Assembly (NCBI GenBank): GCA_963780545.1 | Contig: CAWACK010000016.1 | Location: 92,149 to 156,148, forward strand | Reading direction: 5' to 3' | Length of the DNA: 64,000 nucleotides | From: Candidatus Bathyarchaeota archaeon | GTDB lineage: Archaea > Thermoproteota > Bathyarchaeia > TCS64 | Part shown: piece by piece, positions 11,694 through 57,574 of the stretch | Position numbering within the stretch: the first letter of the stretch is position 1 | How the letters are laid out: each line of letters starts with the position of its first letter | Position numbers and translations under genes: made by a program | Notes under the pieces: generated by a model | What the model was told of the DNA's origin: nothing | Database searches by the model: none | The model's input: the letters and a program-made list of their open reading frames with translations, nothing else

Positions 11694-11744
11694 AACGATA
11701 TGCCATATAAAGGATCCATTTGCCAAAAGGGGCATAAATAAGGC

Positions 11745-12008: not shown

Positions 12009-12167
12009 TTCTACATACCTTCAAGCACTATGCCTTATTGAGAGTCTTTGATAACCTCATTGTAAAAATTACGAATACACCTTTCGCGTGTAAATGCTGC
12101 AATATTCGCTATAGTGGACCCATTTACATTCTAATATTAGTGTTACAAAAAATAAGATGGATCAACC

Positions 12168-13094
12168 ATGTCTTTGGCATTCAATGGAGCGAAGTTCTGC
12201 TGGATGGATGGAAGTGTCGTTGAGACCGATCGAGCGCTGGTCTCGGCGATGGAGCCGATATACCTCGGGATATTCGAGGGGATAAAGGCGTATACAAAGG
12301 GCAATGTAGGCGGCGAGGGGAGACTCCAAGTATTCTCCTGGGATCAGCATATGGACAGGCTATGGAGGAGTGCGGCGATAGATGGCTTGAAGATGCCCTA
12401 CAGCAGGGACGAGTTGTTGAAGGGACTCCGAGAAGTAGTGGAAACGAATGGCTTTAGTTCCAACATCTACATACAGCCCAGGATCTGGCCTAAAGCTGGG
12501 GAACCCGAGGAAGTCCACGTAGTGATTCCTGTCTGGAAGTTCAGCACTCTCCTGCCATCAGTTAACCCGGAGTTCTCGAAGACGAGGAGGTTCATGGTAA
12601 GCAGCTGGAGACGGATCTCGAGCGATGCCCTGCCACCCCAGGCTAAGAGCTGGGCGAACTACGCGAACAGCAACCTCGCCGCTAGGGAAGCTAAGAGGTG
12701 TGGCTACGACTCCGCGATATTCCTTGATAGCAGGGGTTTTGTGTCGGAGGGTACGGGGGCTTGTCTAATGTGCGTCCGCGACGGTGAGCTGATTACTCCA
12801 CCAGTGACGGCCAGCATACTCGAGTCCGTTACGAGAAACCTCTTTCTGGAGTTTGTCCCCTATGACCTTGGTATAGCAACTGAGGTTAGGGACCTCACCC
12901 GAGCTGAGCTCTATGCATCCGAAGAAGTATTCTTATGCGGCACAGGAGGCGAAGTAACTCCGATAACCAGCATCGACGATATTAAGATTGGCATAGAGTA
13001 CCCGGGGCCTATAACTAAGAAGATAGCCGACTATTACTCGGAGGTTCTAACGGGGAACGTGGATAAGTATAGCAGTAGATTAACCCCAATTTAG
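12168..13094 (+). CDS. ilvE: Branched-chain amino acid aminotransferase (PLP fold type IV)
   Basis: 308 aa. The N-terminus ...FCWMDGSVVETDRALVSAMEPIYLGIFEGIKAYTKGN... matches the BCAT pattern (MDG.ivp...A..sv.d.gl.YGdgvFEG.kAY). Confidence 0.8.
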   Translation: MSLAFNGAKFCWMDGSVVETDRALVSAMEPIYLGIFEGIKAYTKGNVGGEGRLQVFSWDQHMDRLWRSAAIDGLKMPYSRDELLKGLREVVETNGFSSNIYIQPRIWPKAGEPEEVHVVIPVWKFSTLLPSVNPEFSKTRRFMVSSWRRISSDALPPQAKSWANYANSNLAAREAKRCGYDSAIFLDSRGFVSEGTGACLMCVRDGELITPPVTASILESVTRNLFLEFVPYDLGIATEVRDLTRAELYASEEVFLCGTGGEVTPITSIDDIKIGIEYPGPITKKIADYYSEVLTGNVDKYSSRLTPI

Positions 13095-13190: not shown

Positions 13191-13577
13191 ATGACCGCTC
13201 CTGATGATCAGCTAGCTAGTGAAAGAAAGGATCCCGCTTCAAGCAGCAGAAACGTGATCGATTGGGTTACATTCTCAAGAAAAAGAGGTCTTGGGATGTG
13301 GGCTTGGATGCTGCAAAGGTTGTCAGCCATTATACTAATCGTATGTGGAATTCTTCACATTATGGATAACCAATTTGGATTCATAATCCCTGGGGGAGAT
13401 TTCGTGACAGTGGATTTACTGGTGTTCTCATTCGCATTCCATACTTTCAATGGCGTCCGTGTTATGTTGATTGAATCTGTGGGATTACTAGCGAAGTACG
13501 AGAAGGCTCTCTTTTACCTAGTTATCCTCGGTGAACTAGTCTTTGTGTTTTGGTGGGCATTTACAGTCGGTCTATGA
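13191..13577 (+). CDS. sdhC: Succinate dehydrogenase membrane anchor / cytochrome b-like subunit (SdhC-like); alternative TTG start at 13122
   Basis: Hydrophobic helices (...WAWMLQRLSAIILIVCGILHI...) lie immediately upstream of sdhA and overlap it by 4 nt. Confidence 0.55.
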   Translation: MTAPDDQLASERKDPASSSRNVIDWVTFSRKRGLGMWAWMLQRLSAIILIVCGILHIMDNQFGFIIPGGDFVTVDLLVFSFAFHTFNGVRVMLIESVGLLAKYEKALFYLVILGELVFVFWWAFTVGL

Positions 13578-18390: not shown

Positions 18391-18646
18391 ATCTTAATTA
18401 AATATTTCCACTCCACAAAGGACTATTTGTATTTTCCATTTTTTATATCGGCAGCTTCGACACATTTGAGATCGCGCCAAAGACCTTTAGGAAGACCCGT
18501 TTTGATTGAATATCCAAAATTCCAGGGAATCGATATTGTTTATTTAAATGTGGAAGGATTCACGCGCGCCGTTGAGAAGCATGAACATTAGTTTCACTTT
18601 TATATCCCTATAAGTTCTTATTTTATGACATTATAATAGTGAAGGC

Positions 18647-18676: not shown

Positions 18677-19102
18677 ATGTCATACAAGGTAAAGGACTAT
18701 ATGGAGAGCTTCTTGGTCACTGACCTTGAGACATCTATCCACGAGGCTGCTGATATTATAGCCGGAGGAGTAAATGATCTCATCGTCATAATGGAGAAGG
18801 GGATACCTAGGGGTTTTATCTCCGCGGCTGACATAGTGTCCAAAGTCATTGCGGTTGGCTCCGACCCAACCAATGTCAAGGTTAAGGATGTGATGACGAC
18901 GCCTTGCGTGATGATAGACCCTGACGATGATCTGATGCATGCCTCAGATATGATCCGGAGAGGAAATCACAATCTGCTTGTAGTCATAAAAAACGGTATA
19001 ATCTACGGTGTGATCACCCCCGGAAGCATAGCTATGAGGTTTGGCGAATACGTGGATAAGGCAGTAAAGGATGTTGTTCGATATAGCGTGTCCTTCCGTT
19101 AG
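18677..19102 (+). CDS. CBS-domain pair protein
   Basis: 141 aa with two CBS motifs (...VKDYMESFLVTDLETSIHEAADII... and ...VKDVMTTPCVMIDPDDDLMHASDMI...). Confidence 0.8.
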   Translation: MSYKVKDYMESFLVTDLETSIHEAADIIAGGVNDLIVIMEKGIPRGFISAADIVSKVIAVGSDPTNVKVKDVMTTPCVMIDPDDDLMHASDMIRRGNHNLLVVIKNGIIYGVITPGSIAMRFGEYVDKAVKDVVRYSVSFR

Positions 19103-19177: not shown

Positions 19178-22100
19178 TTAATTTGTGGCTATTGATAGGA
19201 TTTCTCCTATCTGACTTATTCTCTTTTCACCTAGCATTTCCTCCATCTCCGACTCGAGTATTTTGTTGGTTTTCGTTGTCTGTCTAGCCCAGAAGATGTT
19301 GACGGTTTCCAATAATAGGGATTCTCGGCTTAGACCCATAGAGTGGCTTAGAATAAGTAACATCGCTGCCTGTATCTCCTCCGATGAAATGTATTCGAGG
19401 GGCCTGATCTCCGCTTCGGACCCGTTCACAGGGATCCTCACTTTGATTGCTGTGGAGTTGTTGGGCCAGAGGAATTCTCCGCGTCTTTGAAATCTGCCTT
19501 TTTTAATCATATCCTCAATCGTCGCCCAGTAAGCTTTGTGGAAGGAGGACGGGGCAGGTCTTAGGTTGATAGCCTTGTTAATACGTTTGAATGCGTACTC
19601 TTGGTGTATAGGTCCCTCTATATGGACTAGTTTAGGTAGCAGATTTCTTAGTTCGAGGTGGTAAAGGTCTAGGTAGAGTTCTCTTTGACTTTGGGGAATT
19701 TTGTTGAAGGTTTGTCTTGGCTCGAGGGATGCTCTCAGGTACGGCTCCGAGCCGGGGAGTTCATCACTTCTTTTCTCGGTTACTTTTTGTTCAAGGATTC
19801 TTTTTTTTTGAGCGGTTCTCTTGAGTTGGCTGCTTTCGGGGCGTTTTTCGTATGTTTCAGCCCACTTGAGTGCTTGGTCGAGGCGCTGTATCTCGGTTGA
19901 TCGTCTCTGAACCCACTCGGGCGACCAAATTCTATGGAGGTTCCACCCCATTCCTTCGAGTACCTGAGCTCTGAGTCTGTCCCTGTCCCTCGCTGTCGCT
20001 GTTGATCGGTAGCCCTCGCCATCGAGGATTATTCCGAGTATGAACTTCTCAGGGTTCTCAGGAACCTTTACACCTATGTCTACTCTCAGTGAGCTTTCCC
20101 CAACCTGGAGCACTGCCACGTAGCCGAGTCTGCGGATCTCTTCAGCGACTTCTTTCTGTATTTCTGATTGTATTGTCACTTCTCCTTCTAGTTTCTCAGG
20201 TTTTGTTGTCTGCTCCGTGTATGCCAGATAGTTGTGCAGACATTTCACTCCAAAGGATTTTGTTGAGGATAAGTCGATGTCACTTGACTTGATGGAGCTA
20301 ACAAGTATAACCTTCTCGCGTGCCCTCGTCACAGCGACGTTCAGCCTGCGCTCCCCGCCCTCCATGTTTAGTGGGCCGAAGTTCATGGTCATGACGCCTC
20401 CCTTATCATAACCATATCCCACGCTGATCACCATGACATCTCTCTCATCTCCTTGAACGTTCTCGAGGTTCTTGACGAAGAAACCTCGGAGGCGGTCCTC
20501 CTGCAGGAGCTTCCCATACTCGGGGCTCTTAGCTAAGCGGGTCTCGATCTCGTCCTTTACTGTGTTCATCTGGCTGATGCTGAAGGTCATGACTCCGAGG
20601 GATTTTTCTGGGTGCTCTTTTAGTTGTCTGAACACGATGTCAGCAACCACTTCTGCCTCCCTCAAATTGTTGCGAGCCCCTCCGCGGTCGTAGACTCCGT
20701 CTGGAACATATGTGAACTCTATTCCGAGTCCGCCTCCCTTATCAGTGGCTGAGGGGAATAGGATGAGTTTGTCGTCGTAGAACTCCCTGTTTGAGAATAC
20801 GATGAGTGAGTCGTGTTTGCTCCTGTAGTGCCAGCGAAGCATGCTGACTGGGAGTCCCATTCCCATACACTCGTCCAGGACGCTGTCATAGACCCCCACT
20901 TCGTCGCTTGCCTCCTCCCACTCGAAGTCATTTTCAGCAACGTACTGGAAAAATGGTGTAGGTGGTAGCTGCTTGTTGTCGCCGGCCACAATCAGTGTGT
21001 CCCCCCTGTATATGGATCCCACCGCGTCCTCGGTGAATATCTGTGAAGCCTCGTCGAAGACTACGAGGTCAAAATGTAGCCGCTCGGGGAGGATGAACTG
21101 GCTAACGGAGATAGGGCTCATAAGGAGGCAGGGTTTAAGCCTTCGAATGAGGTTGGGTATTCTGTTGAAGAGGTGGCGGAGTGGCATCTGCCTCCGCTTC
21201 TTGGCCGCCTCCTTGAGGAGGATGGTAATCTCAGAGTCGGGGGCCTCAACGAAGACTCCTTGGGGCTTTTTAGTGTTAGCTGCTTCGATGACTTTTTTCG
21301 GCGACTCCTCTATCAGTCTTGCGTCGAGGGATCTGAAGTCATCGACTGCCTGATCATGTTCCTTCGACCTGAAAGAGCCAAGATTTGAGTCCTCCTCCGC
21401 GAAGTGGTTTAGGAGGCCGCTGTAGATGGATTTCCTGTAGATGTCGATTAGTAGTTCTCTGTTGTACTTCTTCTCAACGAGTTCTTTGACGAGGTTTCCT
21501 AGTCCCTCTTCTATGAGTCTCTTAAATGAATTATTGTAATCGACCCAAGCTTGAAGATCATCTATCCTTTGGGCAAGTTTCTTCGAGACGAGTAAAACCT
21601 CATCGACACTGAGGCTCTGGGCTCGTTTATCCCAGAGGGGGTAGCTGAATCTTGAGTTCAGTTCGTCGATTAGACGATAAATTTCTCGGAGGTGCTTCTG
21701 GGTCTCAAGTTTGGGTCTCCCAAGTGCGGGGTCGGTGGCGAAGTTGATGGTTTCCGCTGAAGGCTTCAGCGGTAGTGCCTGCAGGAGGCTGCGTGTCCAG
21801 TTTATGGCTCCAATTACCTTCAGCCAGTCGGTGGAAACCCCCTCATAGAGTCTCCCATACGTCTCTCTTTGTTGGGGAGCCAGCTCAACTTCAGCTTCCT
21901 CGAAGACTCGTAGCATTTCCGTCTTCCTGATGTCTGAGAGGAGCCGGGAGAGGGTCTTCGGGGGGTCTATGATCGCTGTAATGAGGGCAGGTTGAATGTT
22001 TTCTCGGAGGATGTCTAATCGTTTGTTGAGCTCAACAGCCCATTCTTTCAGGTGATGCAACTGAATGTTCATAATCCTAGTTTCTTCGCCTGGAAGATTC

Positions 22101-24724
22101 TCAGGTAGGATCACACGCAACGGTTTTTGGGCTGCTCTCCAGCTCTGAAGTGAATTGCCTAAGCTTTGGGATTTGGTAAGGAGTTCTTCACTCGGTTTCG
22201 TGGCGACGCAGAGGTTGTCTTTCAGCAACTTCGGGGCCCTTGAGGCGCCTATAAGGCGCAGGGTCTCCCTAGCGGTCTTCATGGCTTCTCCGATCACTTC
22301 GAAGTCAGGGTTCTCTTCCTTGTAGTAGGACCCTAGTCTGCTTTTGGCTTCATCTTGCTCGGAGGCGATTGTTTTTGTCAGCTCCTTCAGCTCTGATGCC
22401 ATCTTGAGGTCCTGTAGGATTTTGGTTGGTATCTCGCCAGTCTTTGTTACTCTTGATATTTCGCGTCTGATGTTGTAGTAACTCGGTCTCAGGTACCTAA
22501 GGGGGGATGACCCTGGTCCCTCAAAGAAAGTAATCAAGGTTTGAAGATCTAGGGTTGTGATCTCGTCTTTGTAGGCGGCTAGTTTTACCCTGAGTTCGTC
22601 TCTTCTCCGGTGTTCTGTCTTGGCTTTATCGAGATATTTCTCCGCCTGTTCAAGGCTCGTTTTGTCGAGCCAACTTCTTTCAGGTCTGATGGTTGCTTTA
22701 CAGAACTCTGTGATGCGTTGGAGTCGCCTTGCCCTGTTGATTGTCTGTGGGTCGGTGGGTAGTCCGAGGATCTCTGAGATCTTTTCTATTTGTTCCCCCC
22801 ATCCGTCAGCGTCCCTTATTGTTTGGTCTAGGAATTTACCTAGGTCGTCTATTCGTTTTAGGAGGCCCCCGTCACCCTTCGGGTTGGGTTTGAGGAGCTC
22901 GGCGGCCCTCTTCCACGTTTCCTCGACTCTGTCGGCCGTACCTCTTGGGAGTGCCCTGAATCTGTTGTCGTATCTGCTTTCAAGGTTGGCTCGTATGGTC
23001 CAGTACTCGTCCCACGCCCGCTTATGCGCTTCAGCCTCAAGCTGGAGTTTGGTGAGGTCCGTGTCCTGGAGCCATCTTGATGGGGGGTAGGGTGTGGATT
23101 CGATGATTTTTGCAAGTTTCTGGGTTGAGTCGTAGTCGTCGAGGCTCTTCGGAGCTTCGAGTTTGAGCTTTTCGCAGTAATAGTGGGTTTCCAGGCTGAG
23201 CTGTTTAGTTGAGTCGATTAGTGTGGTGAGCAGGTTGGTCCACTCGGTGCGGACATCTATAGTGTATGTTGTAGATTTGCAGCCTTTCCAAGGGAAAGAT
23301 GTGCCCTCCTCTACAACGACCCAAGAGTTCAGGAGGTGCCTCAACTGTTCCTCAAGGCCGAAGATGTTCTTCTGGTCGAGGGTGCTGAAGCTCGGGTAAC
23401 CAGATGGGATGTCTGGAATTGACTCGAGCTTGGAGATCTCGTTCAAGAGCTTGTAAGCACTTGTGTTTGATGGTTGCCTCGTCTTGTGTAGGGCCTCTAC
23501 GTAGGTGTTTAGCTGGGTTCTTCTATGCTTCAGTCGGTCTATCTCATCCTCGCTCATCCCTTTGCCGGGTTTTAGGTGCTCCGTGAGGGCCCTGCTTAAT
23601 TCGTTGATGACTTCGCGTTTATTCGCCTTATAGCTATGGAGTTCGAGACAGTATTCGTCGAGGTCTTTTTCCTTCAGACGGTTGTAGACTACCTCGAGGG
23701 CTGCCATCTTCTCGCTAACGAATAGAACACTTCTGCCGGCGGCGATGTATTCGGATATTATGTTAGCTATTGTCTGGCTCTTTCCCGTGCCTGGTGGGCC
23801 GTGCATCACATAGGATTGTCCCCTGAGTGCGTACTGGATGCAGAGTTGTTGGCTGCTATCAGCATCCAAAATCTGGAATGTTTTGCCGGGGTCCACGACG
23901 GTGTCCAGGTCCTCAACACTCGGTAGGCCTTTCTGGATGAGTCCCTCTACGGGTACACCGGCTAAGGCTCTAAGTGTGGGGTGTTCTGTGATGCGGCTTA
24001 GGTTGTCAGTCAGATCTTGATAAATAGCGAGTTTGGCGAAGCTGAAGAGTCCGAGGTATACGGTGGGCTCAACTGTCCACCCAAGTTCCTTCACGACTTC
24101 TTGAATGGCTGCCAGGTAGCTTGATGGTGTCTGCTCCTCTTCCTCTGGGAGGGTTGGGAGGTCAACACTGTGCTCGTACTTCAGCTTTAGCATTAAGGCT
24201 GGGTTGACGAGTATCTCATCCTCTATTGGTGGTATTTTGATCTGGTATGGTTCCCGTGTTGAGTCTCTGGTGAGTTCGACTGGGGTCAGAAGCAGGGGTG
24301 ATACGACTTCCTGTTTAGTATCCTTCTCTGTCCACTTCAACTGCCCGAATGTTATGTAGAGGATCCTTATGCCTCGTTCTGTGTACTCTGATTGGGAGCG
24401 TCTGCTCAGGTTTCTCAGGGTTCTGTCGAGCTGGTTTGGATCGGACCAGCCCGGTGTGATCTCTGTGCTCTTCGGCGGCCTAATTTTGGGCGGCGTATCT
24501 CCAGGCCTCGTAAGGGGAGGTTGCCTGATCTCCCAGCCTCTCCCCCTTACTACGAGTCGGCCGTACACTGTTTCCATATCTGGGGAGACTATTGTGAGGT
24601 GTGAGGTCTTGGTTGGTTGGAAGTAGATCGCCTTGTTCCTCTTTGTTAGGTCTATTAAGCGGAGCTTCCAGTCCTCTACGCGTCTGGCTACCCTAAGGGA
24701 TTCTGGAGATTCCAAGAAGACCAT
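19178..24724 (-). CDS. Giant DUF4011 / SF1 (Upf1-like, AAA_11+AAA_12) helicase / Vsr(DUF559)-like endonuclease / DUF3320 protein with ~700-aa coiled-coil insertion; Hhe-like candidate defence protein
   Basis: 1848 aa. The N-terminal 290 aa are DUF4011-like (...ILYITFGQLKW...SPLLLTPVEL...). Walker A is VMHGPPGTGKSQT, motif II DLVVFDEASQI, motif III TLIVAGDNKQLPPT, and motifs V/VI are ENVQGDERDVMVISVGY and RLNVAVTRAREKVILVSS. A PD-(D/E)xK/Vsr-like segment (...LRVDIGV...ILDGEGYRSTATARDRDRLRAQVLEGMGWNLHRIWSPEW) follows. The C-terminal 250 aa are DUF3320-like. Confidence 0.85.
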   Translation of the reverse strand: MVFLESPESLRVARRVEDWKLRLIDLTKRNKAIYFQPTKTSHLTIVSPDMETVYGRLVVRGRGWEIRQPPLTRPGDTPPKIRPPKSTEITPGWSDPNQLDRTLRNLSRRSQSEYTERGIRILYITFGQLKWTEKDTKQEVVSPLLLTPVELTRDSTREPYQIKIPPIEDEILVNPALMLKLKYEHSVDLPTLPEEEEQTPSSYLAAIQEVVKELGWTVEPTVYLGLFSFAKLAIYQDLTDNLSRITEHPTLRALAGVPVEGLIQKGLPSVEDLDTVVDPGKTFQILDADSSQQLCIQYALRGQSYVMHGPPGTGKSQTIANIISEYIAAGRSVLFVSEKMAALEVVYNRLKEKDLDEYCLELHSYKANKREVINELSRALTEHLKPGKGMSEDEIDRLKHRRTQLNTYVEALHKTRQPSNTSAYKLLNEISKLESIPDIPSGYPSFSTLDQKNIFGLEEQLRHLLNSWVVVEEGTSFPWKGCKSTTYTIDVRTEWTNLLTTLIDSTKQLSLETHYYCEKLKLEAPKSLDDYDSTQKLAKIIESTPYPPSRWLQDTDLTKLQLEAEAHKRAWDEYWTIRANLESRYDNRFRALPRGTADRVEETWKRAAELLKPNPKGDGGLLKRIDDLGKFLDQTIRDADGWGEQIEKISEILGLPTDPQTINRARRLQRITEFCKATIRPERSWLDKTSLEQAEKYLDKAKTEHRRRDELRVKLAAYKDEITTLDLQTLITFFEGPGSSPLRYLRPSYYNIRREISRVTKTGEIPTKILQDLKMASELKELTKTIASEQDEAKSRLGSYYKEENPDFEVIGEAMKTARETLRLIGASRAPKLLKDNLCVATKPSEELLTKSQSLGNSLQSWRAAQKPLRVILPENLPGEETRIMNIQLHHLKEWAVELNKRLDILRENIQPALITAIIDPPKTLSRLLSDIRKTEMLRVFEEAEVELAPQQRETYGRLYEGVSTDWLKVIGAINWTRSLLQALPLKPSAETINFATDPALGRPKLETQKHLREIYRLIDELNSRFSYPLWDKRAQSLSVDEVLLVSKKLAQRIDDLQAWVDYNNSFKRLIEEGLGNLVKELVEKKYNRELLIDIYRKSIYSGLLNHFAEEDSNLGSFRSKEHDQAVDDFRSLDARLIEESPKKVIEAANTKKPQGVFVEAPDSEITILLKEAAKKRRQMPLRHLFNRIPNLIRRLKPCLLMSPISVSQFILPERLHFDLVVFDEASQIFTEDAVGSIYRGDTLIVAGDNKQLPPTPFFQYVAENDFEWEEASDEVGVYDSVLDECMGMGLPVSMLRWHYRSKHDSLIVFSNREFYDDKLILFPSATDKGGGLGIEFTYVPDGVYDRGGARNNLREAEVVADIVFRQLKEHPEKSLGVMTFSISQMNTVKDEIETRLAKSPEYGKLLQEDRLRGFFVKNLENVQGDERDVMVISVGYGYDKGGVMTMNFGPLNMEGGERRLNVAVTRAREKVILVSSIKSSDIDLSSTKSFGVKCLHNYLAYTEQTTKPEKLEGEVTIQSEIQKEVAEEIRRLGYVAVLQVGESSLRVDIGVKVPENPEKFILGIILDGEGYRSTATARDRDRLRAQVLEGMGWNLHRIWSPEWVQRRSTEIQRLDQALKWAETYEKRPESSQLKRTAQKKRILEQKVTEKRSDELPGSEPYLRASLEPRQTFNKIPQSQRELYLDLYHLELRNLLPKLVHIEGPIHQEYAFKRINKAINLRPAPSSFHKAYWATIEDMIKKGRFQRRGEFLWPNNSTAIKVRIPVNGSEAEIRPLEYISSEEIQAAMLLILSHSMGLSRESLLLETVNIFWARQTTKTNKILESEMEEMLGEKRISQIGEILSIATN

Positions 24725-27446: not shown

Positions 27447-27907
27447 TTTCTCGCCCTAAATCTAGTGAGTATCCCTAGAAATCTTTTTACCCACTCGATG
27501 GTGCTTCGACGCGTGTGCGCGCAATGTATTTTTAGACTTAATGGATATGACTCGTATTTTTGGTAAGCGGGGAAAAGAGTTCTTAGTGGTTATCTATGGC
27601 GGATGTAGCCAAAGTAGATTACGACGACGCATATCTTTACGGTCAAAAGACCGCCGATGAATAGTCCCTCCCCCAAAGTCAGCTTAGGATGGTAACTCGT
27701 GCACCGACTTACATTGGCGTCGACGATCTTGAGCCATATACGTTCAATACAACTATCTAGTACTCGCCTGTTGTGGTGCGCGCATGCGATTATGGTTAGT
27801 AAAATTGCACGAAAGGGTTGGAAACTGATCAATTAATCAAGAGGCACAAATATGATGTGGGTAGCCCTTTTTATAGGGCCCTCATGAGAGGTTTCCTGGT
27901 GAACTAA

Positions 27908-34415: not shown

Positions 34416-34717
34416 GATAACTGATCATCTCTTGTGTTTAAACCCCTTACTAGCGCGCACATTACTTATGGAGGCTCTGCCCGATAAGAATAGCAAAATG
34501 GCAATCCTAGCGCGCGCTTACACCAGCAGCTTTCCTCTGCCCACAATTGCCATATCATCTACTGTAACAGCCGTATTGGCGATAGATGACCACCATTGGT
34601 CAGTTGCAACGTTTTTTCCATCTATTACTTCATCGCTGCCGAAACCAATAGCAACCCCACCTAGGACCTTATCATCTTGTGTGAAACCATACCGAATGTT
34701 CGGGTTCAGACCTAATC

Positions 34718-35043
34718 CTAAGAAGGCGGATCGCCCGGCATCCCTCCCACTTCCTCTAAGTATCTTTCTAATACCTTGGCTCCTCGAGTTGCATTGAACT
34801 GGAAGATCCGCCCATTCTTCACATTAATCACAAGGTTCTCAATCACTTCATTGCCCAGACGAACAGAGGCATCGTATACTATTCTACCCTCGACACTTTC
34901 TTCATCCATCGAGACTTCTAGTGATCCTGCGGGAAGAAATGTGATCTTTCCATCCAGAGCCATTTGATGCGTGGCAATTCCATCGGATATTTCAAGAGGC
35001 CTATGGTCGAGAGTAAGGCTCATTTGTGCCGCGCGCGCCATCT
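34718..35043 (-). CDS. Hypothetical protein (ATG at 35041-35043 embedded in a GCGCGCGC motif; ORF track extends to 35119)
   Basis: MARAAQMSL... gives a 108-aa ORF. The start is uncertain and no confident family could be assigned. Confidence 0.3.
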
Positions 35044-38225: not shown

Positions 38226-39426
38226 ATGAAATCTCTGAAACTACGTGAAGTGTCGATACTTTTCTTTGTCGGTTCGACTCATTTTCTTATCCACGTTCTC
38301 AGCCAATTGTTGCCAGCTGTTTTACCGGTTATAAGAAGTGAGATGGGTTTAACTTTGACTCAGGCGAGCTTACTCATCTCAATCCCCTTAATGGTCCAGG
38401 TATTTGCCTATCTGCCGGTTGGTTTCGCATCTAGGAAAAATGGAACATTTCTCCTCACTTTAAGCTTGGTATTGACTGCAGTTGGGGCGGTAATCATCCC
38501 TTTAGCCAGTAGTTATGGGATCATCTTACTCGGTTTTGGGCTTCTCGGATTAGGACAGACCATGTATCATCCACCAGCTTTCCAGATTGCTGGCGAAACT
38601 GAACCTAGCAGACTTGGATTAGTCATGGGTGTACAGATGGCGGGGGGAAGTCTAGGTTCAGCAGTTGGTCCCATCACGCTAGGTATCATCCTTTTTGCGT
38701 GGGGTTGGAGGGCTGGTTTCTATATTTGGGTTCCTTTGATACTCCTAGGTACTGTTTACGTCTTTTATTTCATGCATCGAACCTTAAAACCCAAAGTCGT
38801 CGATACTTCTCAGGCCTCACTTGGAAATGTTTCACGATTCCTTCTTAACAGAGGTTTTCTGATGGTCGTTACCATAAGCGCAATAATTGAGGCTTCTTCT
38901 ATGATTTTGTTGACCTATCTGACTAGTTACTTGACTGCCGTTTTGGGATTATCTGCCTCTCTAGCGAGCTTAATCTTCGGGTTTGGAGCATTATTGGGCA
39001 TAGCGGGCTCCCTCTTAGGTGGGAGTTACCGGAGATACATTTGGGAATTACAGATCGATAACGTTGGTTGCGGTGTTGATGGTGGTTTCAGTGGCGCTAA
39101 TTCCTGTTTTCAGTAGCATTATTTTGGTTGCATTTTTCTTCGTAATCTGGAGGGGGCTCTACTCGGCTTCTATGCCAATTGTGAACTCTCTTGTTGTGTC
39201 TCATAGTGAACCTCAGACTAGGACGATGGCTTTTAGCGTCAATTTCTTAGTTTCAAGTCTCACAGATGCGATAGTTCCTGTTGCGACATCGATAGCTATA
39301 GAGGGTCGACTGGGAGCAATATTTCCAATATCTGTTCTGACTATGCTTCCAGGTATAGTGTTAGCTATATATCTTGGAGGACTAGCAAGGCGAAAAGGCA
39401 GTATACTGGCTTCGCACGCGATGTGA
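38226..39426 (+). pseudogene. MFS transporter interrupted by a +1 frameshift near 39020-39045 (two ORFs 38226-39116 and 39019-39426)
   Basis: Both ORFs have MFS-type TM helices. The conserved loop ...GSLLGG|VTGDTFGNYRSITLVAVLMVV is only continuous across the frame change. Confidence 0.5.
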
Positions 39427-40026: not shown

Positions 40027-40572
40027 ATGAACAGCGATGAAATGAGTTCGGAGGATGTGCTCAAGGTAGCCAGGGATGCCTTCATAAAAAGGAAACTGAG
40101 TGACGTAATCGTTGCCTCGACGAGAGGCGAGACGGGTTTGGCTGCAGCCCGCATCTTCAAGGGCGCCAATGCGAACTTAGTTGTGGTGGGCCATTCTGTT
40201 GGCTTCAAGGAGCCTAACCTGAACTCCTTTAGTCAGGATGCTAGGAGGGAGATTGAGGCGCTGGGTGGGAAGGTACTCCAGAGCACGATGCCTTTTCACT
40301 CCATCAACGACGCTATCCGGGTGAAATCGGGGACCTCTATCGAGACGCTGATTGCTGACACTCTCCGCATGTTGGGTCAAGGAACGAAGGTTTGTGTTGA
40401 GATCGTTTCGATGGCCTGCGATAATGGTCTTTTAGAGAGTGGGAGGAATGTACTCTCGATTGCCGGCACTGGACAGGGTGCTGACACCGTTTTGGTCCTT
40501 AGATCCGCAAATAGTAAACGACTTTTCGACATACGGGTTATTGAGATCATAGTGAAACCCGAGAAAATATGA
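40027..40572 (+). CDS. Stand-alone pyruvate-kinase C-terminal (alpha/beta) domain-like protein (COG1751-like)
   Basis: ...VIVASTRGETGLAAARIFKGANANLVVVGHSVG... and ...GQGADTVLVL... parallel the PK C-terminal domain (...ivv.T.sG.tA..vsk.RP..pIia.T). This call is tentative. Confidence 0.4.
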   Translation: MNSDEMSSEDVLKVARDAFIKRKLSDVIVASTRGETGLAAARIFKGANANLVVVGHSVGFKEPNLNSFSQDARREIEALGGKVLQSTMPFHSINDAIRVKSGTSIETLIADTLRMLGQGTKVCVEIVSMACDNGLLESGRNVLSIAGTGQGADTVLVLRSANSKRLFDIRVIEIIVKPEKI

Positions 40573-40874
40573 AACGGTTCGCATTCGCTGTCTTAAGCTT
40601 CGTCTCAGTATAAGTGGTTTTGTTGTTTTCGGTCATTTAAGTCACGACTCTTGATGGGTCTGGGCTTTTATCCCATTTTATGCTAGGAATATTCCGATTG
40701 TGATGCTGATTATTAATAGGAGATAATTAGTGGCATCAACCTGAGGCTCCTCAGGCACCCGCGCTTGCGAAGATGGTAAGTTTATTAAAGGCATCATAGC
40801 TGTTTTGTTAAAGCGATTCGCGCGCGACTACTTCGTAGAGTATGCGTTCACGGCGCTGTGAACAGGGTGTAAAG

Positions 40875-41942
40875 ATGTCTCAACCTAGTGTACCAGGGAA
40901 AATCATAGGTGTCTTAACAGGCGGAGGAGACGCTCCGGGCTTAAACGCTGTGATTCGAGGAATAACCCTCGGCGCTCATTCACTCAACTACGATGTGATC
41001 GGGTTTAGGAATGGCTGGGCTGGTCTCCTTGGTGTGGGAGATGCTCTTCCACTTAATCCGAGGGGGTCGAGGGTATCCATATGATAGGTGGGACGATCCT
41101 CGGGACCTCTAGGACTAACCCATACAAACATCAGAACGGGATACATGAGTTGAGTCAGTAATTTGAGGAAGCATCACGTAGATCACTTGATCGCGATCGG
41201 GGGAGAGGACACGTTGAGCGTTGCCAAGAACCTGGTCTCGGAAGGCGTAGATGTTGTTGGTGTACCCAAGACGATCGATAATGATGTAAATTGTACAGAC
41301 TATACGGTTGGCTTCGACTCTGCACTTAATGTTGCTGCCGAGGCTATATCGAGGGTACACACGACTGCGAGTAGTCATAGGAGAACCATGATCGTTGAGG
41401 TGATGGGGAGGCACGCCGGCTGGTTAACCTTGTACGCAGGAATTGCTGGTGGGGCACATGTGATTCTTGTTCCAGAGCGGTCGTTTGATCTCGATGAGGT
41501 TTGCAGCGTTGTAAGTGAGAGAAAGGATATGGGGCTCGAATACACCATCATCGCTTGCAGTGAGGGGGCGACGACAAGAGACGGTGAGTTGATTCTGAGG
41601 AATGGGCAGGTGGATGAGTTCAACCATGTGCAGCTGGGTGGAATTGCTGAGCAACTCGCCCCACTGATAGAGAAGAGGACGGGTGTGGAGTGCAAGAGCG
41701 TTACGCTTGGTTACCTTCAGAGGTCGGGGCCCCCGTCTGCGTTCGATCGGGTGCTGGGGACGAGATTTGGTTTTTCGGCTATCGAGGCTGTCGATAGGGG
41801 GGAATTCGGCAAGATGGTCGCCCTCAAGGGCACGGAGATAGTCACCGTGGGGTTGGATGAAGCGCTCGCAAGCCTGAAAACTGTCCCAGAAAACATGATA
41901 GATGATTTTGAACGATACTTAAGGATGGATCAACTAGGGTGA
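40875..41942 (+). pseudogene. pfkA: 6-phosphofructokinase (PfkA family) with two compensating frameshifts (~41062-41066 and ~41150-41156); ORFs 40842-41084 and 41163-41942 share frame 3
   Basis: The N-terminus KIIGVLTGGGDAPGLNAVIRG is the ATP/PPi-PFK signature. The substrate motif ...VEGIHMIGGTILGTSRTNP... is readable only in frame 2, between 41069 and 41158. Downstream motifs are ...LIAIGGEDT...VGVPKTIDNDV...MGRHAGWL.... Confidence 0.6.
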
Positions 41943-47698: not shown

Positions 47699-47796
47699 CT
47701 CCGCACAGGTTAACAGAGTTAACATACTTGACAACGGAGTTGACAGAGTTAACACTCAACTTAACAGAGTTAGCTGTCAGATTAACACCTAACTTA
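47699..47796. repeat. Array of four or five imperfect direct repeats, consensus (G/C)TT(A/G)ACAGAGTTA(A/G)C, in a 480-bp non-coding gap between convergent genes
   Basis: Units are gttaacagagttaaca (47699-47714), gttgacagagttaaca (47729-47744), cttaacagagttagc (47750-47764) and cttaacagcttaag (47783-47796), plus a gattaacac partial at about 47770. Confidence 0.45.
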
Positions 47797-51550: not shown

Positions 51551-51877
51551 CGATGGTTGCACGTGGGGAACTCGTCTAATGCGATAATGTGTACGTCTAC
51601 CCATCTTTTGGTGTGTGTACGCGCGCTTGAGTATGGGCTTCTTCCCGAATATTCTTCTCATCTGAACAAAAATACCTTGCTGCCACTGGGCAACATATCT
51701 TAGTTTTGGCTTCCCTGCTTCAACTGCTTTTACTATTGCGTCAACGGCTGTTTTCGTTGAGTTCAACTCTGTTCTGCTGAAGAACGCGTGCGCGACTTCA
51801 TCATTGGCTATGCCATTGGTCGTAATGAGCCAAGAGAAATATCCGTAAGCGGGAGATTAGTATAGCGTGATTCACGA

Positions 51878-53527
51878 ATGTCTTCGTCTAATTCCAAATC
51901 ACGAACTCCGCCTCCTGGTGCATGCACAAATCTACTTGGCGAGGTTAAGTGTTTGGACCGGCAGTCGCCAGCGTGGTTGCGTCATGCGGTGATTTATCAG
52001 GTTTATCCGCAAAGTTTCTACGACACCAACGGTGATGGGATTGGTGATCTCCCCGGCGTTATCGCTAAACTGGATTACATAAAGTCACTTGGCTGCACAG
52101 CGCTTTGGCTCAACCCCGTTTTTGACTCGCCTTTCGGCGATGCCGGATACGACGTGAGCAATTACGAGAAGATTGCGCCGCGATATGGTACAAATGAAGA
52201 TGCGAAGCGTCTGTTTTCGGAAGCCCACCAACGTGGCTTGCGGGTAATTTTCGACTTAGTGGCGGGACACACCTCTGTGGAACATCGTTGGTTCATAGAA
52301 TCATCGAAGACTAAATCAAATATTTACAGCGGGTTTTATCTCTGGGTGCCGGCGTCCGAAAAAGGTTCGGTTCCGCATATAGGAGGCAGGCCGGAGCACT
52401 TCATAAAGAACTTTTTTGAGTTCCAACCCGCGCTCTACTATGGCTCGGCTAATCCCGATCCCATAAAACCGTGGGAGCGAAGTCCCTATGACCCAAAAAG
52501 CTTGGCGGTACGTGAGGCTATGCGCCATGTTATGAAATACTGGCTCGATTTGGGCTGCGATGGTTTTCGGGTGGACATGGCCTTCTCACTCATTAAGAAC
52601 CCCGATCGGGATGGCGGCGTCGCATTGAGTGAACTTTGGAAAGACTATCGAGACTGGCTGAACGAGAACTACCCTGAAGCGGTTCTGATCTCCGAATGGT
52701 CAGATCCGGTGAAGGCGATCCTGGCGGGTTTCGATGTTGATTTCCTCATCCACTTTAATGAGACGCCCTATCAGCACCTGCTTAACCCATGGGTTGGCCA
52801 TGACACTGACCCGATGCCATTCTTCGCCCGCGAAGGTTGTGGCAACATCAGGGAGTTTTTGGATGGCTACCTACGGCTTTATCAAGCCACATGTCACCTC
52901 GGTTACATCGCTTTACCCACTGGTAACCATGACTTCAGCCGACCCCATTTTCACCGACGCAGTGAAAACGATCTAAAGGTCATCTACACCATGTTGTTCA
53001 CTATGCCTGGCGTGCCTTTCCTTTACTACGGCGACGAGATCGGGATGCGCTATTTTCCTGACTGGCCAAAAAAGGAAGGAGCCATGTGGCGGGGAGGCTG
53101 CCGGACGCCCATGCAATGGGACGCTTCGCCGGGAGCCGGCTTCTCCACTGCACCAATCAAAGACTTCTATTTGCCGCTGGACCCTGATCCCCAGCGTCCC
53201 AACGTAGCTGCTCAAGAGGGAAAACGTGACTCACTATTGAATTTTGTCCGTAGCTTGATCGCGTTGCGGCACGCGAATCCTTCCCTCGACAATCTCGGTG
53301 GTTTTCAACCACTCTACGCCGAGAAAAACAAATTTCCATTTGTCTATAGCCGCACAGGTGGTCCTCGTGACTTCATTATCGCAGTGAACCCCACCGACGC
53401 CCCACAAAGCTGTTCTGTTGACGCTTTGGGTGGAGCCCAGCTAGTCATGACAAATGGCGCTAGCGTTGATGAAACTAGAATTGTCATGCCTTCTATTTCT
53501 TATGCAATCTATGAATTTTTACCCTAG
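51878..53527 (+). CDS. GH13 alpha-amylase-family enzyme (trehalose synthase / alpha-glucosidase-like)
   Basis: ...VIYQVYPQSFYDTNGDGIGDLPGVIAKLDYIKSLGCTALWLNPVFDSP...GYDVSNY... is GH13 region I. ...GFRVDMA... holds the catalytic Asp region, and ...YYGDEIGM... is also present. Confidence 0.85.
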   Translation: MSSSNSKSRTPPPGACTNLLGEVKCLDRQSPAWLRHAVIYQVYPQSFYDTNGDGIGDLPGVIAKLDYIKSLGCTALWLNPVFDSPFGDAGYDVSNYEKIAPRYGTNEDAKRLFSEAHQRGLRVIFDLVAGHTSVEHRWFIESSKTKSNIYSGFYLWVPASEKGSVPHIGGRPEHFIKNFFEFQPALYYGSANPDPIKPWERSPYDPKSLAVREAMRHVMKYWLDLGCDGFRVDMAFSLIKNPDRDGGVALSELWKDYRDWLNENYPEAVLISEWSDPVKAILAGFDVDFLIHFNETPYQHLLNPWVGHDTDPMPFFAREGCGNIREFLDGYLRLYQATCHLGYIALPTGNHDFSRPHFHRRSENDLKVIYTMLFTMPGVPFLYYGDEIGMRYFPDWPKKEGAMWRGGCRTPMQWDASPGAGFSTAPIKDFYLPLDPDPQRPNVAAQEGKRDSLLNFVRSLIALRHANPSLDNLGGFQPLYAEKNKFPFVYSRTGGPRDFIIAVNPTDAPQSCSVDALGGAQLVMTNGASVDETRIVMPSISYAIYEFLP

Positions 53528-53862
53528 AATATGTCATCAGAATAAGACTAAGATCTCTCGCTTGAGACAAATGATAATAGGAGGTTCTTTTGCCCCCTGA
53601 TGCTGGCGTCACGCGCGCGATTCGTGAGGTGATGAACCGTGGTTGGGGAGATCTGCAGAAACTGTGTCATTACGTTGAGGGTTAAATGGTTCCCATGGTC
53701 ACGCGCTTATAAGATGTATTTCAGGTCATTGTAGAATGCACACATTTTGCCGACTCGGAGAATGGTCGTGGACGTACCGCATCATGCGCGCTCATATGGT
53801 ACGTTCCTAACCCCAAATAAGCACATTTGCAATAAACCTTTTTCCCTAAAATTTTTTTTATA

Positions 53863-54240: not shown

Positions 54241-54660
54241 CTACAGAGGCATAAATCTATAAAGACTCCTCGCTAGCCTATCCTCAAGCTCCTCAAAGTG
54301 GTCCACGAGGTCCTTAGCAGTGAATACCCCGTAGATTATGGTCTCCTTAACAACTGGCAGCCTCCTGAAGCCGTGTTTCTTCATTACCTCAACCGCTTCT
54401 TCGATGCTCTTATCGGGGTCAATGGTAACGAGAGGCGAAGACATGCAGTCTATGATCTTTACTTCATTCGGATTCTTGTCTTCGGCCATGATTTTCAGGA
54501 CCAGGTCCCTTTCAGTCACTATGCCGACGGGTCGACCCTTCTCAAGAACGATGACGTAGCCCACTTTGTCGGTTGACATTGTCTTAGAGGCTTCTATAGC
54601 TGATGCCTCGGTGCTGATTGTTGGGATGTCTTTTCTCATGTAGTCCTTAACTGATGTCAT
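54241..54660 (-). CDS. CBS-domain pair protein
   Basis: 139 aa with two CBS motifs (...VKDYMRKDIPTIS..., ...IIDCMSSPLVTIDPDKSIEEAVEVM...). Confidence 0.8.
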   Translation of the reverse strand: MTSVKDYMRKDIPTISTEASAIEASKTMSTDKVGYVIVLEKGRPVGIVTERDLVLKIMAEDKNPNEVKIIDCMSSPLVTIDPDKSIEEAVEVMKKHGFRRLPVVKETIIYGVFTAKDLVDHFEELEDRLARSLYRFMPL

Positions 54661-55109
54661 TCGTCTCTACGTTTTTCAGTAGGTCAACCTTCTTTATACC
54701 TCTTTATGACTCTAAAAATGCTAAGAAAGTAATGAATGTAAACTAATCGTAGGATCATAATCGAGCAAATAGCCTCGTTGCGCGCGCGACGAGGCAATAA
54801 GGGCCATGTCGAAGATCGCTCGGTCAGTATGATTAACGCGTATTCTAGAATCCTATTACCTGGCGAACAATTACAACAGTGCAACGACCCGGAGTTCTCT
54901 CTTGATTGATGATGAGGATCTTGGAAACCGAACTTGGCATTCCACTCGCATCGCGGATCCTAACATCCTCCAACGGATAGCTATAGGTTTGGATTCGGCG
55001 CATGGAGGTCTCAAGGTCGGGAACCACCTTCTGAGACCCAACGACCCAAAACACTTTGCTAGCGCGCGCTTGAGTTTTCGTGGCACACTAGTAATTTAAG
55101 TCGTTTTCC

Positions 55110-55741: not shown

Positions 55742-57574
55742 TTGGGTAGTTTGTCGGATTACAACCCTAGTAGTTGGACTCTGACGAAGCGCCTGCTGGG
55801 ACAGATCAAGCCCTACATGGGGACCTATCTCTTGATCAATCTCACGGCGTTCGGTAGAGAAGGCGTTTATAGTTTACTTGCTCCGCTCCTCGTCCTGCTA
55901 ATTATCGACTACGTTTTGGTGCCTGTTCCCGGTGATAAGAACTGGTTCCTAGAGCTGGTCAAACAGTGGACGGGCGTCACGAATCCGTATGGTTTGTTGG
56001 TCATACTTGTCAGCCTCATCGTTTTACTCGCTATCACGAGGTTCGTGTTCTTTGTAATCCACAGATACTACCGTGGAGTTCTAAGCCAGAACATTCTACG
56101 TGATCTGCGCCGGGACTTATACAACGCCCTGATCAACAAGTCGTTCAGCTACCTAAGCCAAGTCAGGACGGGTCAGATCATCAGTCGAGTTACCAGCGAC
56201 ATGAATGCCATTGATCTCTTCTACTCGGAGACGCTCAGGGAGATCTTCAGGATGACCCTCCAGCTGGTCATCGCGGTCATTATTCTGCTGTTCATCAACC
56301 CTGGCTTAACGGGCATCACCCTGCTTACTCTTCCTTTCATCTTCTTGGCGACGAGGCTCTACCTGCCGAGGGTCAGGAGCCGCATGCTATCTGCAAAGTC
56401 TCAATTTGACACACTAAACGGCGTCCTGGTAGAGGGGATCACGGCTCAGAAGCTCATCAAGGGCTTCGGCCAGGAGGAAACTTTTGGCGGTAGGTTTGAG
56501 AAGGAGAACCAGGGATACGTCGAGAAGAGCCTTAGGACCCTCAAGCTGCAGGCCGCATACACACCCTCCGGCACGCTGATCAGCGCAGTCGGTATAGCCC
56601 TGGTATTGGTTTTTGGTGGAACCTTGGTGGTTGGGGGTAGCCTCACACTGGGTGAATTGGTGCTCTTCGGCACCTACTTTACCCAACTTGTTGGGCCCGT
56701 TAGGATGTATGCTCGACTCCTCGATTTCTACCAGGATGGATTGGTGAGTGCTCGCCGCGTTTACGAGGTCATTGATGTCGGCAGGGACGTACCCGAGCCC
56801 GAACACCCCATCGAACTCCCGAGGCTCAAAGGAGATGTAGAGTTCAGGAACGTATCCTTCAGCTATGGCGCAGCTGAGACTCTGAAGGATGTGAATTTCA
56901 AGGTCGAATCGGGGGAGAAGGTTGCTATTATTGGCTTCGTCGGCTCCGGTAAGAGCGCATTGACGGAGCTTGTACCACGGTTCTACGATGTGACCGCCGG
57001 CCAAGTCTTGATCGATGGCTTCGACGTACGCGATGGATCATTAAAGTCTCTTCGCAGCCAGATTGGAATCGTTCTTCAAGACATCTACATGTTCTCAACA
57101 ACCATCAAGGAGAACATCACGTTCGGTAAGCCGGATGCATCGGATGAGGAGGTCGTCTCAGCCGCTAAGGCTGCGCAGATTCACGACTACATAGCTTCTC
57201 TGCCAAAAGGATACGAGACGGAGGTTGGGGAAAGGGGAATCACACTCAGTGGGGGCCAGAGGCAGAGGGTCGCCATCGCCCGAGTGTTGCTCATGAATCC
57301 ATCTATTCTGATACTCGACGATTCAACCAGCAACGTCGACGCTGAGACGGAGGTTCTCATCCGGAAGGCCATCGACGCACTTCTGGAGAGTAGAACAGCG
57401 TTGATAATCACACAGCGCGCCTCAACATGCGAGAACGCCGACAAGGTGGTTGTAGTCGATGAGGGACACATCGCTGCCATCGGCAAGCACACTGAGCTCC
57501 TTAGGTCGAGTGAGAAGTATCGTAGCCTGATCGAGTCACAGACCCTCACCATGGACCAGGAGGCTGAGGACTGA
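55742..57574 (+). CDS. ABC transporter permease/ATP-binding protein (exporter half, MsbA/MdlB-like)
   Basis: A 6-TM N-terminal domain is followed by Walker A (GFVGSGKS), the LSGGQRQR signature, Walker B (ILILDD) and an H-loop. Confidence 0.9.
   Translation: MGSLSDYNPSSWTLTKRLLGQIKPYMGTYLLINLTAFGREGVYSLLAPLLVLLIIDYVLVPVPGDKNWFLELVKQWTGVTNPYGLLVILVSLIVLLAITRFVFFVIHRYYRGVLSQNILRDLRRDLYNALINKSFSYLSQVRTGQIISRVTSDMNAIDLFYSETLREIFRMTLQLVIAVIILLFINPGLTGITLLTLPFIFLATRLYLPRVRSRMLSAKSQFDTLNGVLVEGITAQKLIKGFGQEETFGGRFEKENQGYVEKSLRTLKLQAAYTPSGTLISAVGIALVLVFGGTLVVGGSLTLGELVLFGTYFTQLVGPVRMYARLLDFYQDGLVSARRVYEVIDVGRDVPEPEHPIELPRLKGDVEFRNVSFSYGAAETLKDVNFKVESGEKVAIIGFVGSGKSALTELVPRFYDVTAGQVLIDGFDVRDGSLKSLRSQIGIVLQDIYMFSTTIKENITFGKPDASDEEVVSAAKAAQIHDYIASLPKGYETEVGERGITLSGGQRQRVAIARVLLMNPSILILDDSTSNVDAETEVLIRKAIDALLESRTALIITQRASTCENADKVVVVDEGHIAAIGKHTELLRSSEKYRSLIESQTLTMDQEAED

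Follow-up and report, generated by a model that had tools for sequence, protein, structure and literature searches.

Short tracts of alternating C and G, of the form W-(CG)4-5-W, show a strong excess in the non-coding DNA of a Bathyarchaeia lineage. Where a close relative is informative, most of them stand at a junction or at a replaced segment. We lean towards regarding these tracts as lineage-specific junction marks, left where pieces of DNA were joined. Such joints would arise after a deletion, after the insertion of foreign or fragmentary DNA, or through the reshuffling of gene modules. The placement of the runs hints at an undescribed route by which breaks are rejoined; to our knowledge classical NHEJ is missing in most relatives, and break repair in this group is essentially undescribed. 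If the runs are indeed junction filler, they would provide a record of past deletions, insertions and module shuffling in abundant uncultured archaea.

Enrichment and anatomy of the runs

The window, that is, the whole stretch of 64,000 nt that was analysed, has a GC content of 48% and a CpG observed/expected ratio of 0.91. Its ABC transporter (55742-57574) shares 93-95% identity with proteins from Candidatus Bathyarchaeia MAGs, and the matches of its GGT (P0122) belong to Bathyarchaeia as well; because the window is thus archaeal, promoters are read in terms of BRE and TATA elements. According to Pfam the genes form an ordinary prokaryotic set, several of them broken: the PFK (40842-41942) is a pseudogene with in-frame double stops, the pyruvate kinase is represented by its C-terminal domain only (ORF 40027-40572), the integrase is a degraded fragment (8856-9215) and the M29 peptidase is shredded. 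Reassignment of a stop codon as the source of the split ORFs was rejected given the double stops, the frameshifts and the normal stop usage, and since stop-codon usage is normal we take the broken ORFs to be pseudogenes rather than cases of recoding. Long repeat families, tRNAs and Rfam matches were searched for in the window and none were found.

One gene stands apart. The alpha-amylase gene shows atypical codon usage and is 82% identical at the nucleotide level to that of a Verrucomicrobiota MAG (L001), with 85% identity for the protein. A bacterial origin of the window was considered and rejected, as this MAG shares the amylase alone, has 56% GC and lacks synteny. Given that nothing else is common to both, the amylase gene was probably acquired horizontally.

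For comparison we used an ingroup of 495 kb of non-redundant related loci, selected by a transporter at least 65% identical, and an outgroup of 266 kb of unrelated loci that came from the same scan. Individual loci are denoted by L and a number. Genes were called with a coding-potential model trained on long ORFs; the calls are conservative.

The window contains seven maximal C/G alternations that reach 8 nt or more, where 0.68 would be expected, and none of the 300 dinucleotide-preserving shuffles reached this number; for runs of at least 7 nt the count is 10 against 2.9 in the shuffles. The initial annotation had given correct positions for all seven runs with at least (CG)4. It had assumed that about two would occur by chance, so the excess that it reported is real but larger than claimed. 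None of the seven lies inside an intact gene. This agrees with their earlier description as intergenic or overlapping a start, except that the 'ATG' at 35030 is part of an M29 remnant and no true start. Among dinucleotide repeats of at least four units, CG and GC occur five times each in the window and every other repeat zero to two times.

The enrichment is replicated in the ingroup, where 63 runs reach 8 nt or more and 12 would be expected, and is absent from the outgroup (1 against 7.5). Lineages such as L094, L101 and L124 show no such excess. It is confined to non-coding DNA: 55 ingroup runs are found there, against 1.3 expected from an order-1 Markov model or 2.4 from a within-segment dinucleotide shuffle, which amounts to an approximately 40-fold over-representation. 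Coding DNA has no excess (8 against 9.3), and most of its eight runs overlap a stop codon, are close to a start of doubtful status or belong to split genes. Both comparisons proposed earlier, intergenic against coding DNA and window against related genomes, thus came out in favour of a real enrichment. Within genes (CG)3 is even avoided under a codon-shuffling null (6-mers 32 against 54, 7-mers 2 against 13). Of the six possible alternations CG is the only one expanded in ingroup non-coding DNA; AT, AC, GT, AG and CT are at chance level. A survey of prokaryotes found general suppression of the GC6 and GC8 patterns (PMC4060949), and the lineage studied here is therefore unusual in its excess. 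We found no report in the literature of CG-repeat enrichment or CG filler in archaea.

The sites in the window are listed below, together with the two gene fragments that they adjoin; junction status was assessed for the sites at 34453, 34510, 35030, 54780 and 55062.

9304-9313: TTCGCGCGCGCGAA, a 10-nt run that follows closely on the integrase fragment 8856-9215, in an AT-rich stretch poor in genes
10072-10078: CGCGCGC run in the gene-poor degraded region that also holds the 9304 run
18563-18569: CGCGCGC run between a 2-hydroxyacid dehydrogenase, whose stop lies 225 nt before it, and the CBS gene 18677-19102 (plus strand), 107 nt further on
34453-34458: GCGCGC, downstream joint of a 598-nt insertion; homology to L166, L167 and L168 resumes 2 nt on
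34510-34517: GCGCGCGC run directly after the M29 stop codon, at the joint of the M29 fragment and a 51-nt piece
34518-35029 (minus strand): C-terminal fragment of an M29 aminopeptidase, frameshifted, with its own TAA stop (PF02073, from six-frame translations)
35030-35038: CGCGCGCGC run, upstream joint of the 598-nt insertion; homology to L166 ends 10 nt off, at 35049
40819-40826: TCGCGCGCGA, between the pyruvate-kinase C-terminal-domain ORF 40027-40572 and the PFK pseudogene 40842-41942
51620-51626: CGCGCGC run after GTGTGTGTA, together a 16-nt R/Y-alternating tract, about 250 nt upstream of the alpha-amylase
53612-53619: CGCGCGCG run, 84 nt after the amylase stop
54780-54788: GCGCGCGCG run in the middle of a 22-nt near-palindrome, CCTCGTTGCGCGCGCGACGAGG; it precedes the CBS gene 54241-54660 (minus strand) by 119 nt
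54848-55061 (minus strand): 5'-truncated remnant of a LUD-domain (LutC-like) gene, the last 74 codons or so, with its stop codon at 54845-54847
55062-55069: GCGCGCGC run at the joint where the LUD remnant is truncated at its 5' end; it follows the PadR stop by 40 nt

The runs at 51620 and 53612 bracket the amylase gene, and those at 51620 and 55062 have the flank GCGCGCTTGAGT in common. The word CTAGCGCGCGCTT is present at both 34507 and 55059, as had been reported. A second shared word, the 13-mer CGCGCGCTTGAGT, does occur at 51620, but its other copy starts at 55063 and not at 55062. Two of the shorter sites that had been listed need correction: the letters at 634-645 are TGCGTGCGCACA, which alternate R/Y and do not contain (CG)3, and the GCGCGC placed near 27524 is located at 27517-27522. 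The run that had been placed about 50 bp upstream of 'pfk' was found again; this gene is a pseudogene with in-frame stops.

The motif measures 8-11 nt and nothing wider could be recognized. The lengths of the 55 non-coding runs are 8 nt (27 runs), 9 nt (17), 10 nt (10) and 11 nt (1), with none longer, and the C-first and G-first registers are equally frequent. A bias in the flanks is limited to the adjoining position, which prefers A or T (on the 5' side T in 52% and A in 35%); from the second position outward complementarity between the flanks is at chance level. No half-sites or extended symmetry were found around the runs; the 22-nt near-palindrome at 54773-54794 stands by itself. The only flanking k-mer that recurs is TTGAGT, seen three times (51620 and 55062 in the window and 19667 in L113). 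An extended palindrome or flank motif was accordingly rejected, W at the positions directly adjoining the run being all that is shared. The CG core is unable to fold as a hairpin by itself, and a consensus of at least 20 nt with a stem-loop, as in REP or MITE elements, is lacking, as are a repeat family, a flank consensus and an Rfam match. A single mobile element between paired runs was rejected too, the segments between runs being mutually unrelated, and when these segments were inspected by eye for a C/D-box or other small RNA, no boxes were seen.

Run lengths are identical in near-identical loci, with no length polymorphism. In three cases both flanks could be aligned to a diverged relative: one run is conserved (flank identity 91%) and two show a CpG-to-CpA change. 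At older sites decayed R/Y relics are found, for example GTGCGTGCGCGTG and GCGCACGC. As judged from the letters, which alternate purine and pyrimidine as (CG)n with n of at least 4, the tracts should be Z-DNA-prone.

Runs at joints in the window and in relatives

Two places in the window allow the DNA on either side of a run to be traced. A minus-strand reading of 77 codons (54848-55078) corresponds to the last 74 residues of LUD-domain proteins, which are about 215-225 aa long and of which the full-length matches carry PF02589 (LUD_dom). A phmmer search against 1.84 billion proteins gave 128 matches below 1e-10; the best is 69% identical, with query residues 4-77 aligned to 151-224 of 224 (E = 2e-23). 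The homology begins at the codons of the run 55062-55069 and ends at the natural stop, and the run 54780-54788 follows 59 nt past the last codon. Since the homology starts at 55062 and 54780 lies beyond the stop, this pair of runs, which the initial annotation had flagged, brackets a 5'-truncated dead gene. In L086 a run is found at the same distance past PadR as the window run at 55062, and there the homology to L090 breaks.

The second place is upstream of GGT. In a blastn comparison with L166 (83-87% nucleotide identity) homology extends from 35633 to 35049 and resumes at 34450; between these blocks L166 has 108 nt and the window 598 nt. The outer part of the insertion consists of 10 nt, the run 35030-35038 and the M29 C-terminal fragment of approximately 510 nt with its own stop, and the rest of the run 34510-34517, 51 nt, the GCGCGC at 34453-34458 and 2 nt. 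The M29 fragment covers positions 241-304 of the 406 in PF02073; a PDB search for the boundary of its homology gave no match. The GGT core promoter contains a BRE/TATA element, GGGTTTAAAC, some 35 nt ahead of the ATG. All four loci (window, L166, L167 and L168) conserve it, but among them the CG runs upstream of GGT occur in the window only, as part of the insertion. For both places the ancestral state is deduced from one relative (L166) or from protein homology, and not from a near-identical strain.

Events in the relatives can be polarised more directly in about five cases, a small number, which add to the two patchworks of the window. In L135 a segment of 113 nt that is common to L103 and the more distant L106 has been replaced by CGCGCGCGAC. 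Approximately 200 nt away, in the PadR gene, 59 nt have been replaced in frame by CGCGCGCG; this replacement adjoins a CGCG that was there before, and its two flanks show 100% identity. Because the intact state is found in two diverged lineages and encodes a normal protein, the CG runs of L135 are derived and recent. Between L086 and L090, which are 94% identical at the nucleotide level, homology comprises exactly the PadR-ABC-ABC module and is bounded on both sides by CG runs of L086. L090 and L089 continue with a third ABC gene, starting with ccaATGgttgag; on the right side L086 keeps the ccaATG of this gene, followed by CGCGCGC and then unrelated DNA. More generally the regions 3' of PadR differ among the relatives; L171, considered as a closer comparator for the site past PadR, is arranged like L081 and adds no information.

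A comparable patchwork is seen in L168. Here an IS transposase reads ...ELPIAYTVA and is followed by CGCGCGC, 294 unrelated nucleotides, CGCGCGCGCG and a transposase C-terminus, and intact homologues read on with PCNENDK... at the first joint. Intact transposases are 86-95% identical to the N-terminal fragment and approximately 35-40% to the C-terminal one; given this difference, the locus is composed of fragments of two different IS elements and a third piece. Another run of L168 is located 9 nt after a tRNA-Arg. Taken together, most informative runs sit exactly at a breakpoint or indel boundary. In both events of L135, in L086 and in L168 the ancestral allele lacks the run, and neither flank can account for it, as would be expected of a scar.

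How general is this association? Of the runs of at least 8 nt, 11 have an informative close comparator; nine of these mark a junction or replacement, one is conserved and one has merely decayed. Starting from the other side, 18 of the 72 unique abrupt homology breakpoints in related loci lie no more than 15 nt from a run of 6 nt or longer, against an expectation of a few per cent, which is a rough estimate from run density and not a computed value. A stricter local control places pseudo-sites within 120 nt on either side of each run. Here eight runs of at least 8 nt fall within 15 nt of an alignment end (3.1 expected) and six within 8 nt (2.1 expected). The association under this control is moderate, with p about 0.01, and is limited by how few close comparators there are; the ends of BLAST alignments are fuzzy and non-coding DNA diverges fast, so that some of these 'junctions' may represent mere decay of similarity.

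If the runs are junction marks, it follows that they cluster at the edges of transcription units, bracket dead fragments and are rarely conserved. They would last almost only in non-coding DNA, since a joint inside a gene usually kills it; the few gene-internal runs are indeed located at gene edges or in pseudogenes.

Position relative to genes and rival explanations

Runs are found in about 15% of the spacers, at densities per kb of 0.88 in tandem, 0.73 in convergent and 0.50 in divergent spacers. Their position across the 495 kb of related loci was compared with random placement inside the same spacers. Upstream of starts, the nearest 60 nt are depleted of runs (4 against 9.7 expected), which contradicts the earlier remark that they are often near start codons. 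Enrichment is seen from 90 to 135 nt upstream of starts (15 against 7.9) and in the first 60 nt downstream of stops (17 against 9.6). The depletion and these two enriched zones together place the runs along the outer margins of transcription units, away from core promoters.

Some recurrent arrangements deserve mention. At 90-120 nt upstream of each of three CBS-domain genes there is a run; a conserved CBS-gene regulon was rejected, the three being paralogues with unrelated upstream DNA. Downstream of ABC2 the order is stop codon, oligo-T, 10-30 nt and then the run, and in about 10 of 27 lineages runs or R/Y-alternating relics occupy this same place. This recurrence, together with the one conserved run, could point to a function in addition to a scar. 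A role as terminator was rejected: no T-tract or T enrichment adjoins the runs, a hairpin followed by a T-run is missing, and after ABC2 the run lies beyond the T-tract. Spacings between paired runs tend to group around multiples of 30 nt, as was noted post hoc.

It might be argued that the runs are selected structural boundary elements, Z-prone or rigid tracts that would absorb supercoiling, stop read-through or phase archaeal histones. Modules would then travel with their boundaries, and placement at joints would be secondary. The bias to unit edges with its depletion in the 60 nt before starts agrees with this, as do the site past the oligo-T of ABC2 with its recurrence across lineages, the conserved site, the avoidance of (CG)3 in genes under the codon-preserving null, the A/T at the flanks, which easy B-Z junctions would have, and the post hoc spacings. 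Nonetheless we consider this explanation rather improbable. Runs are new in derived deletion alleles, one of them in frame in the PadR gene; they bracket dead gene fragments, for which insulation is unneeded; they are missing from the orthologous spacers of close relatives and most spacers do without them. The R/Y relics would be expected from CpG-to-TpG decay even without selection. A boundary or Z-DNA element and a scar are compatible with each other, and a pure scar model does not directly predict either the preference for W at the flanks or the avoidance of (CG)3 by genes.

The runs might also be the cores of site-specific recombination or mobile cassettes, integron-like, or else the target or target-site duplication of a mobile element. 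The L086 module with a run on both sides and L090 homology stopping at each, the bracketed insertions of L168 and the window, the integrase fragment next to the 9304 run and the tRNA-Arg just before a run of L168 all fit such an origin. It is an unlikely one, however, given that the pieces lying between runs show no relation to one another and comprise random fragments of genes, that single runs stand in for deleted DNA at places where no site pair existed in the ancestor, and that no arm sequence or structure is conserved beyond the core. Nor is a recombinase gene consistently nearby: in the window there is only the degraded integrase fragment close to one site. The variation in register and length is atypical for a recombinase core.

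Less probable still is the proposal of the initial annotation, in which a dimeric DNA-binding regulator recognizes the runs as operators of a regulon. The core is palindromic and intergenic, each of the three CBS-domain paralogues is preceded by a run at 90-120 nt, and there is a modest peak 90-135 nt before starts. Against this, half-sites and an extended palindrome are missing, register and length vary, the density is similar in convergent spacers and the core-promoter zone is avoided. The GGT promoter is conserved in four genomes and the runs are found in one of them; elsewhere runs flank pseudogene fragments or come right after stop codons, and the downstream genes have no common functional theme. 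The suggested dimeric binding site thus finds no support in the symmetry, the position or the conservation of the runs. Lowest of all we rate a neutral mutational by-product, either dinucleotide slippage or methylation of CGCG or GCGCGC with a repair bias (compare HIP1 in cyanobacteria). Such a process would leave runs that are non-coding, lineage-specific, poorly conserved and decaying via CpG transitions, as observed. Yet no other dinucleotide is expanded, run lengths peak at 8 and end abruptly at 11 instead of tailing off, near-identical loci differ in no run length, orthologues differ by substitutions, and neither slippage nor repair bias is able to swap 59-113 nt of flanking DNA for a run. 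A link with restriction-modification would predict avoidance, opposite to the 40-fold excess; explanations by slippage and restriction-modification are largely excluded.

A possible origin of the runs and known systems

For the formation of junction marks we infer the following mechanism from the structure of the joints. The ends of a break would be trimmed to a CG-rich seed, CGCG or GCG. Seeds of this kind are present at several breakpoints, for example ACGCG and GCGGCG directly before the break in L135 and the GCx-GGx-GCx codons at the LUD joint. Alternating CG would then be added by untemplated or slippage synthesis, or else be copied from another CG tract by microhomology-mediated template switching. 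Such switching would explain the flanks that several runs share (GCGCGCTTGAGT, CTAGCGCGC and GCGCGC-TTGAGT). The self-complementary (CG)n tails may subsequently anneal and be sealed, giving an all-G:C joint of 8-10 bp, and CpG transitions would wear old runs down to R/Y relics.

A bolder version, which we put forward as a tentative and on the whole improbable idea, is that this Bathyarchaeia lineage has a dedicated pathway for end joining and DNA capture. An enzyme would add alternating d(CG) tails to broken ends, so that any two could anneal and be ligated, with a CG linker of 8-10 bp at every deletion, every fragment insertion and every horizontally acquired block (for example the amylase, with its runs at 51620 and 53612). 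The tailing enzyme might be a polymerase, a primase-polymerase or a reverse-transcriptase-like protein. If true, a self-annealing, sequence-defined linker would be a new solution for joining unrelated ends and capturing foreign genes. It would also provide a sequence marker for pseudogenisation and for the boundaries of horizontal transfer in metagenome-assembled genomes. A more general caution is that striking intergenic palindromes may be historical scars and need not be regulatory.

Filler at joined ends is known from TdT in V(D)J joining, from alt-EJ by Pol-theta and from the LigD polymerase domain in bacterial and archaeal NHEJ. As with the CG runs, extra nucleotides that come from neither partner are found exactly at the joints, and the breakpoints often lie at short microhomology, here the CGCG or GCG seeds. 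Known filler is heterogeneous or copied from nearby, whereas the CG runs consist of one defined, self-complementary repeat of 8-10 nt that is lineage-specific. No sequence-defined filler in archaea was found in the literature.

In cyanobacteria the highly iterated palindrome HIP1 (GCGATCGC) is plentiful within genes, and orthologues often share it. It resembles the CG runs in being a GC-rich palindrome of about 8 bp that occurs in massive excess in one lineage and has no agreed function. The difference is that HIP1 has one fixed spelling, whereas register and length differ from one CG run to the next; moreover, the CG runs are kept out of genes, show little conservation and are located at junctions, and they do not form a fixed word spread over coding and non-coding DNA alike. 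REP/BIME and MITE elements measure 20-40 nt or more and have conserved imperfect stems and a family consensus. These too are extragenic palindromes, often just 3' of genes and sometimes clustered; unlike them, the CG runs have nothing conserved past the core and no hairpin of their own.

Tracts of Z-DNA-forming (CG)n and (CA)n are hot spots of instability, according to Freund et al. (1989) and Wang et al. (2006) as quoted in PMC13174585. There, as here, alternating purine-pyrimidine tracts are linked to deletions and rearrangements. In the hot spots, as that source describes them, a long pre-existing repeat provokes deletions that shorten or remove it. For the CG runs the order is different: the ancestral allele has no run or 3-4 nt of it, and the run arrives together with the deletion.

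A last comparison concerns DRT3b, which carries out protein-templated synthesis of strictly alternating poly(dC-dA) (PMC13174585). Unlike the CG runs it belongs to a bacterial anti-phage system and makes long free CA/TG polymers, for which chromosomal integration is not known (PMC13174585). It does set a precedent in that an alternating dinucleotide, Z-prone as DNA, is made without a nucleic-acid template and yields self-complementary products that anneal (PMC13174585).

Broken genes and their remnants

Remnants of several genes lie within the window, and the region that holds them looks to be in active gene decay:

40842-41942, PFK gene, broken by in-frame stops (one double, one single)
40027-40572, pyruvate-kinase ORF, C-terminal domain only
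8856-9215, integrase fragment
38226-39426, MFS transporter gene, apparently split

The AT-rich stretch 7300-12200 has few genes and contains short ORFs, the integrase fragment and two CG runs (alternating C/G tracts). It also carries a 22-nt direct repeat, whose copies at 11399-11420 and 11431-11452 share 95% identity. The stretch is probably an integrated element that has degraded.

Dead gene pieces and runs occur together in related loci as well. At L168 19632-21482 (and in L169) a CG run lies 9 nt past a tRNA-Arg, and beyond it comes a patchwork of IS fragments, 1.5 kb long and holding four runs; the DNA 3' of the orthologous tRNA-Arg in L167 differs from that in L168. This segment of L168 is an integration or decay hot spot adjoining a tRNA. 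A further dead gene piece flanked by two runs is found in L112 (1028-1502), where runs at 1028-1036 and 1495-1502 bracket a C-terminal transposase fragment (tblastn match 1160-1456).

A probable acquisition and other features of the window

The alpha-amylase gene (51878-53527) is 85% identical in amino acids and 82% in nucleotides to a gene of a Verrucomicrobiota MAG (L001 9609-11214), with no synteny around it between the window and L001. Its codon usage is atypical for the host archaeon, and a recent inter-domain horizontal transfer is likely. CG runs at 51620 and 53612 bracket the gene. Codon usage is atypical too for SdhA (13574-15289).

Three other features were recorded:

19178-24724, minus strand, 1848-aa protein with DUF4011, superfamily-1 helicase (AAA_11/AAA_12) and MTES_1575 restriction-endonuclease-like domains
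47709-47768, tandem repeat of two 30-nt units (GTTAACAGAGTTAACA..., 70% identical) in the spacer 3' of the gene ending at 47518
34431-34450, minus strand, GGT core promoter GTAAGGGGTTTAAACAC, approximately 35 nt 5' of the ATG

The 1848-aa protein is a putative large helicase-nuclease. The GGT promoter is conserved, being common to the window, L166, L167 and L168, and is a clean BRE/TATA example for this archaeal lineage.

Decay and spacing of the CG runs

Two tracts in the window show perfect purine/pyrimidine alternation:

634-645, TGCGTGCGCACA
51611-51626, GTGTGTGTACGCGCGC

Tracts resembling these, namely GTGCGTGCGCGTG, are present 3' of ABC2, the second ABC gene of the PadR-ABC-ABC module, in L094, L097, L104 and L128. 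All three sequences look like CG runs after CpG-to-TpG decay.

Start-to-start distances between neighbouring runs in the ingroup (related) loci are 57, 57, 58, 62, 85, 88, 91, 118, 153 and 155 nt. Examples of such pairs are:

window, 34453 and 34510
L086, 4133 and 4190
L105, 1637 and 1695
L098, 2593 and 2655

These spacings group near multiples of 30 nt, a post hoc observation on a small sample. With the same reservation, they are reminiscent of archaeal histone polymers, whose step is 30 bp.
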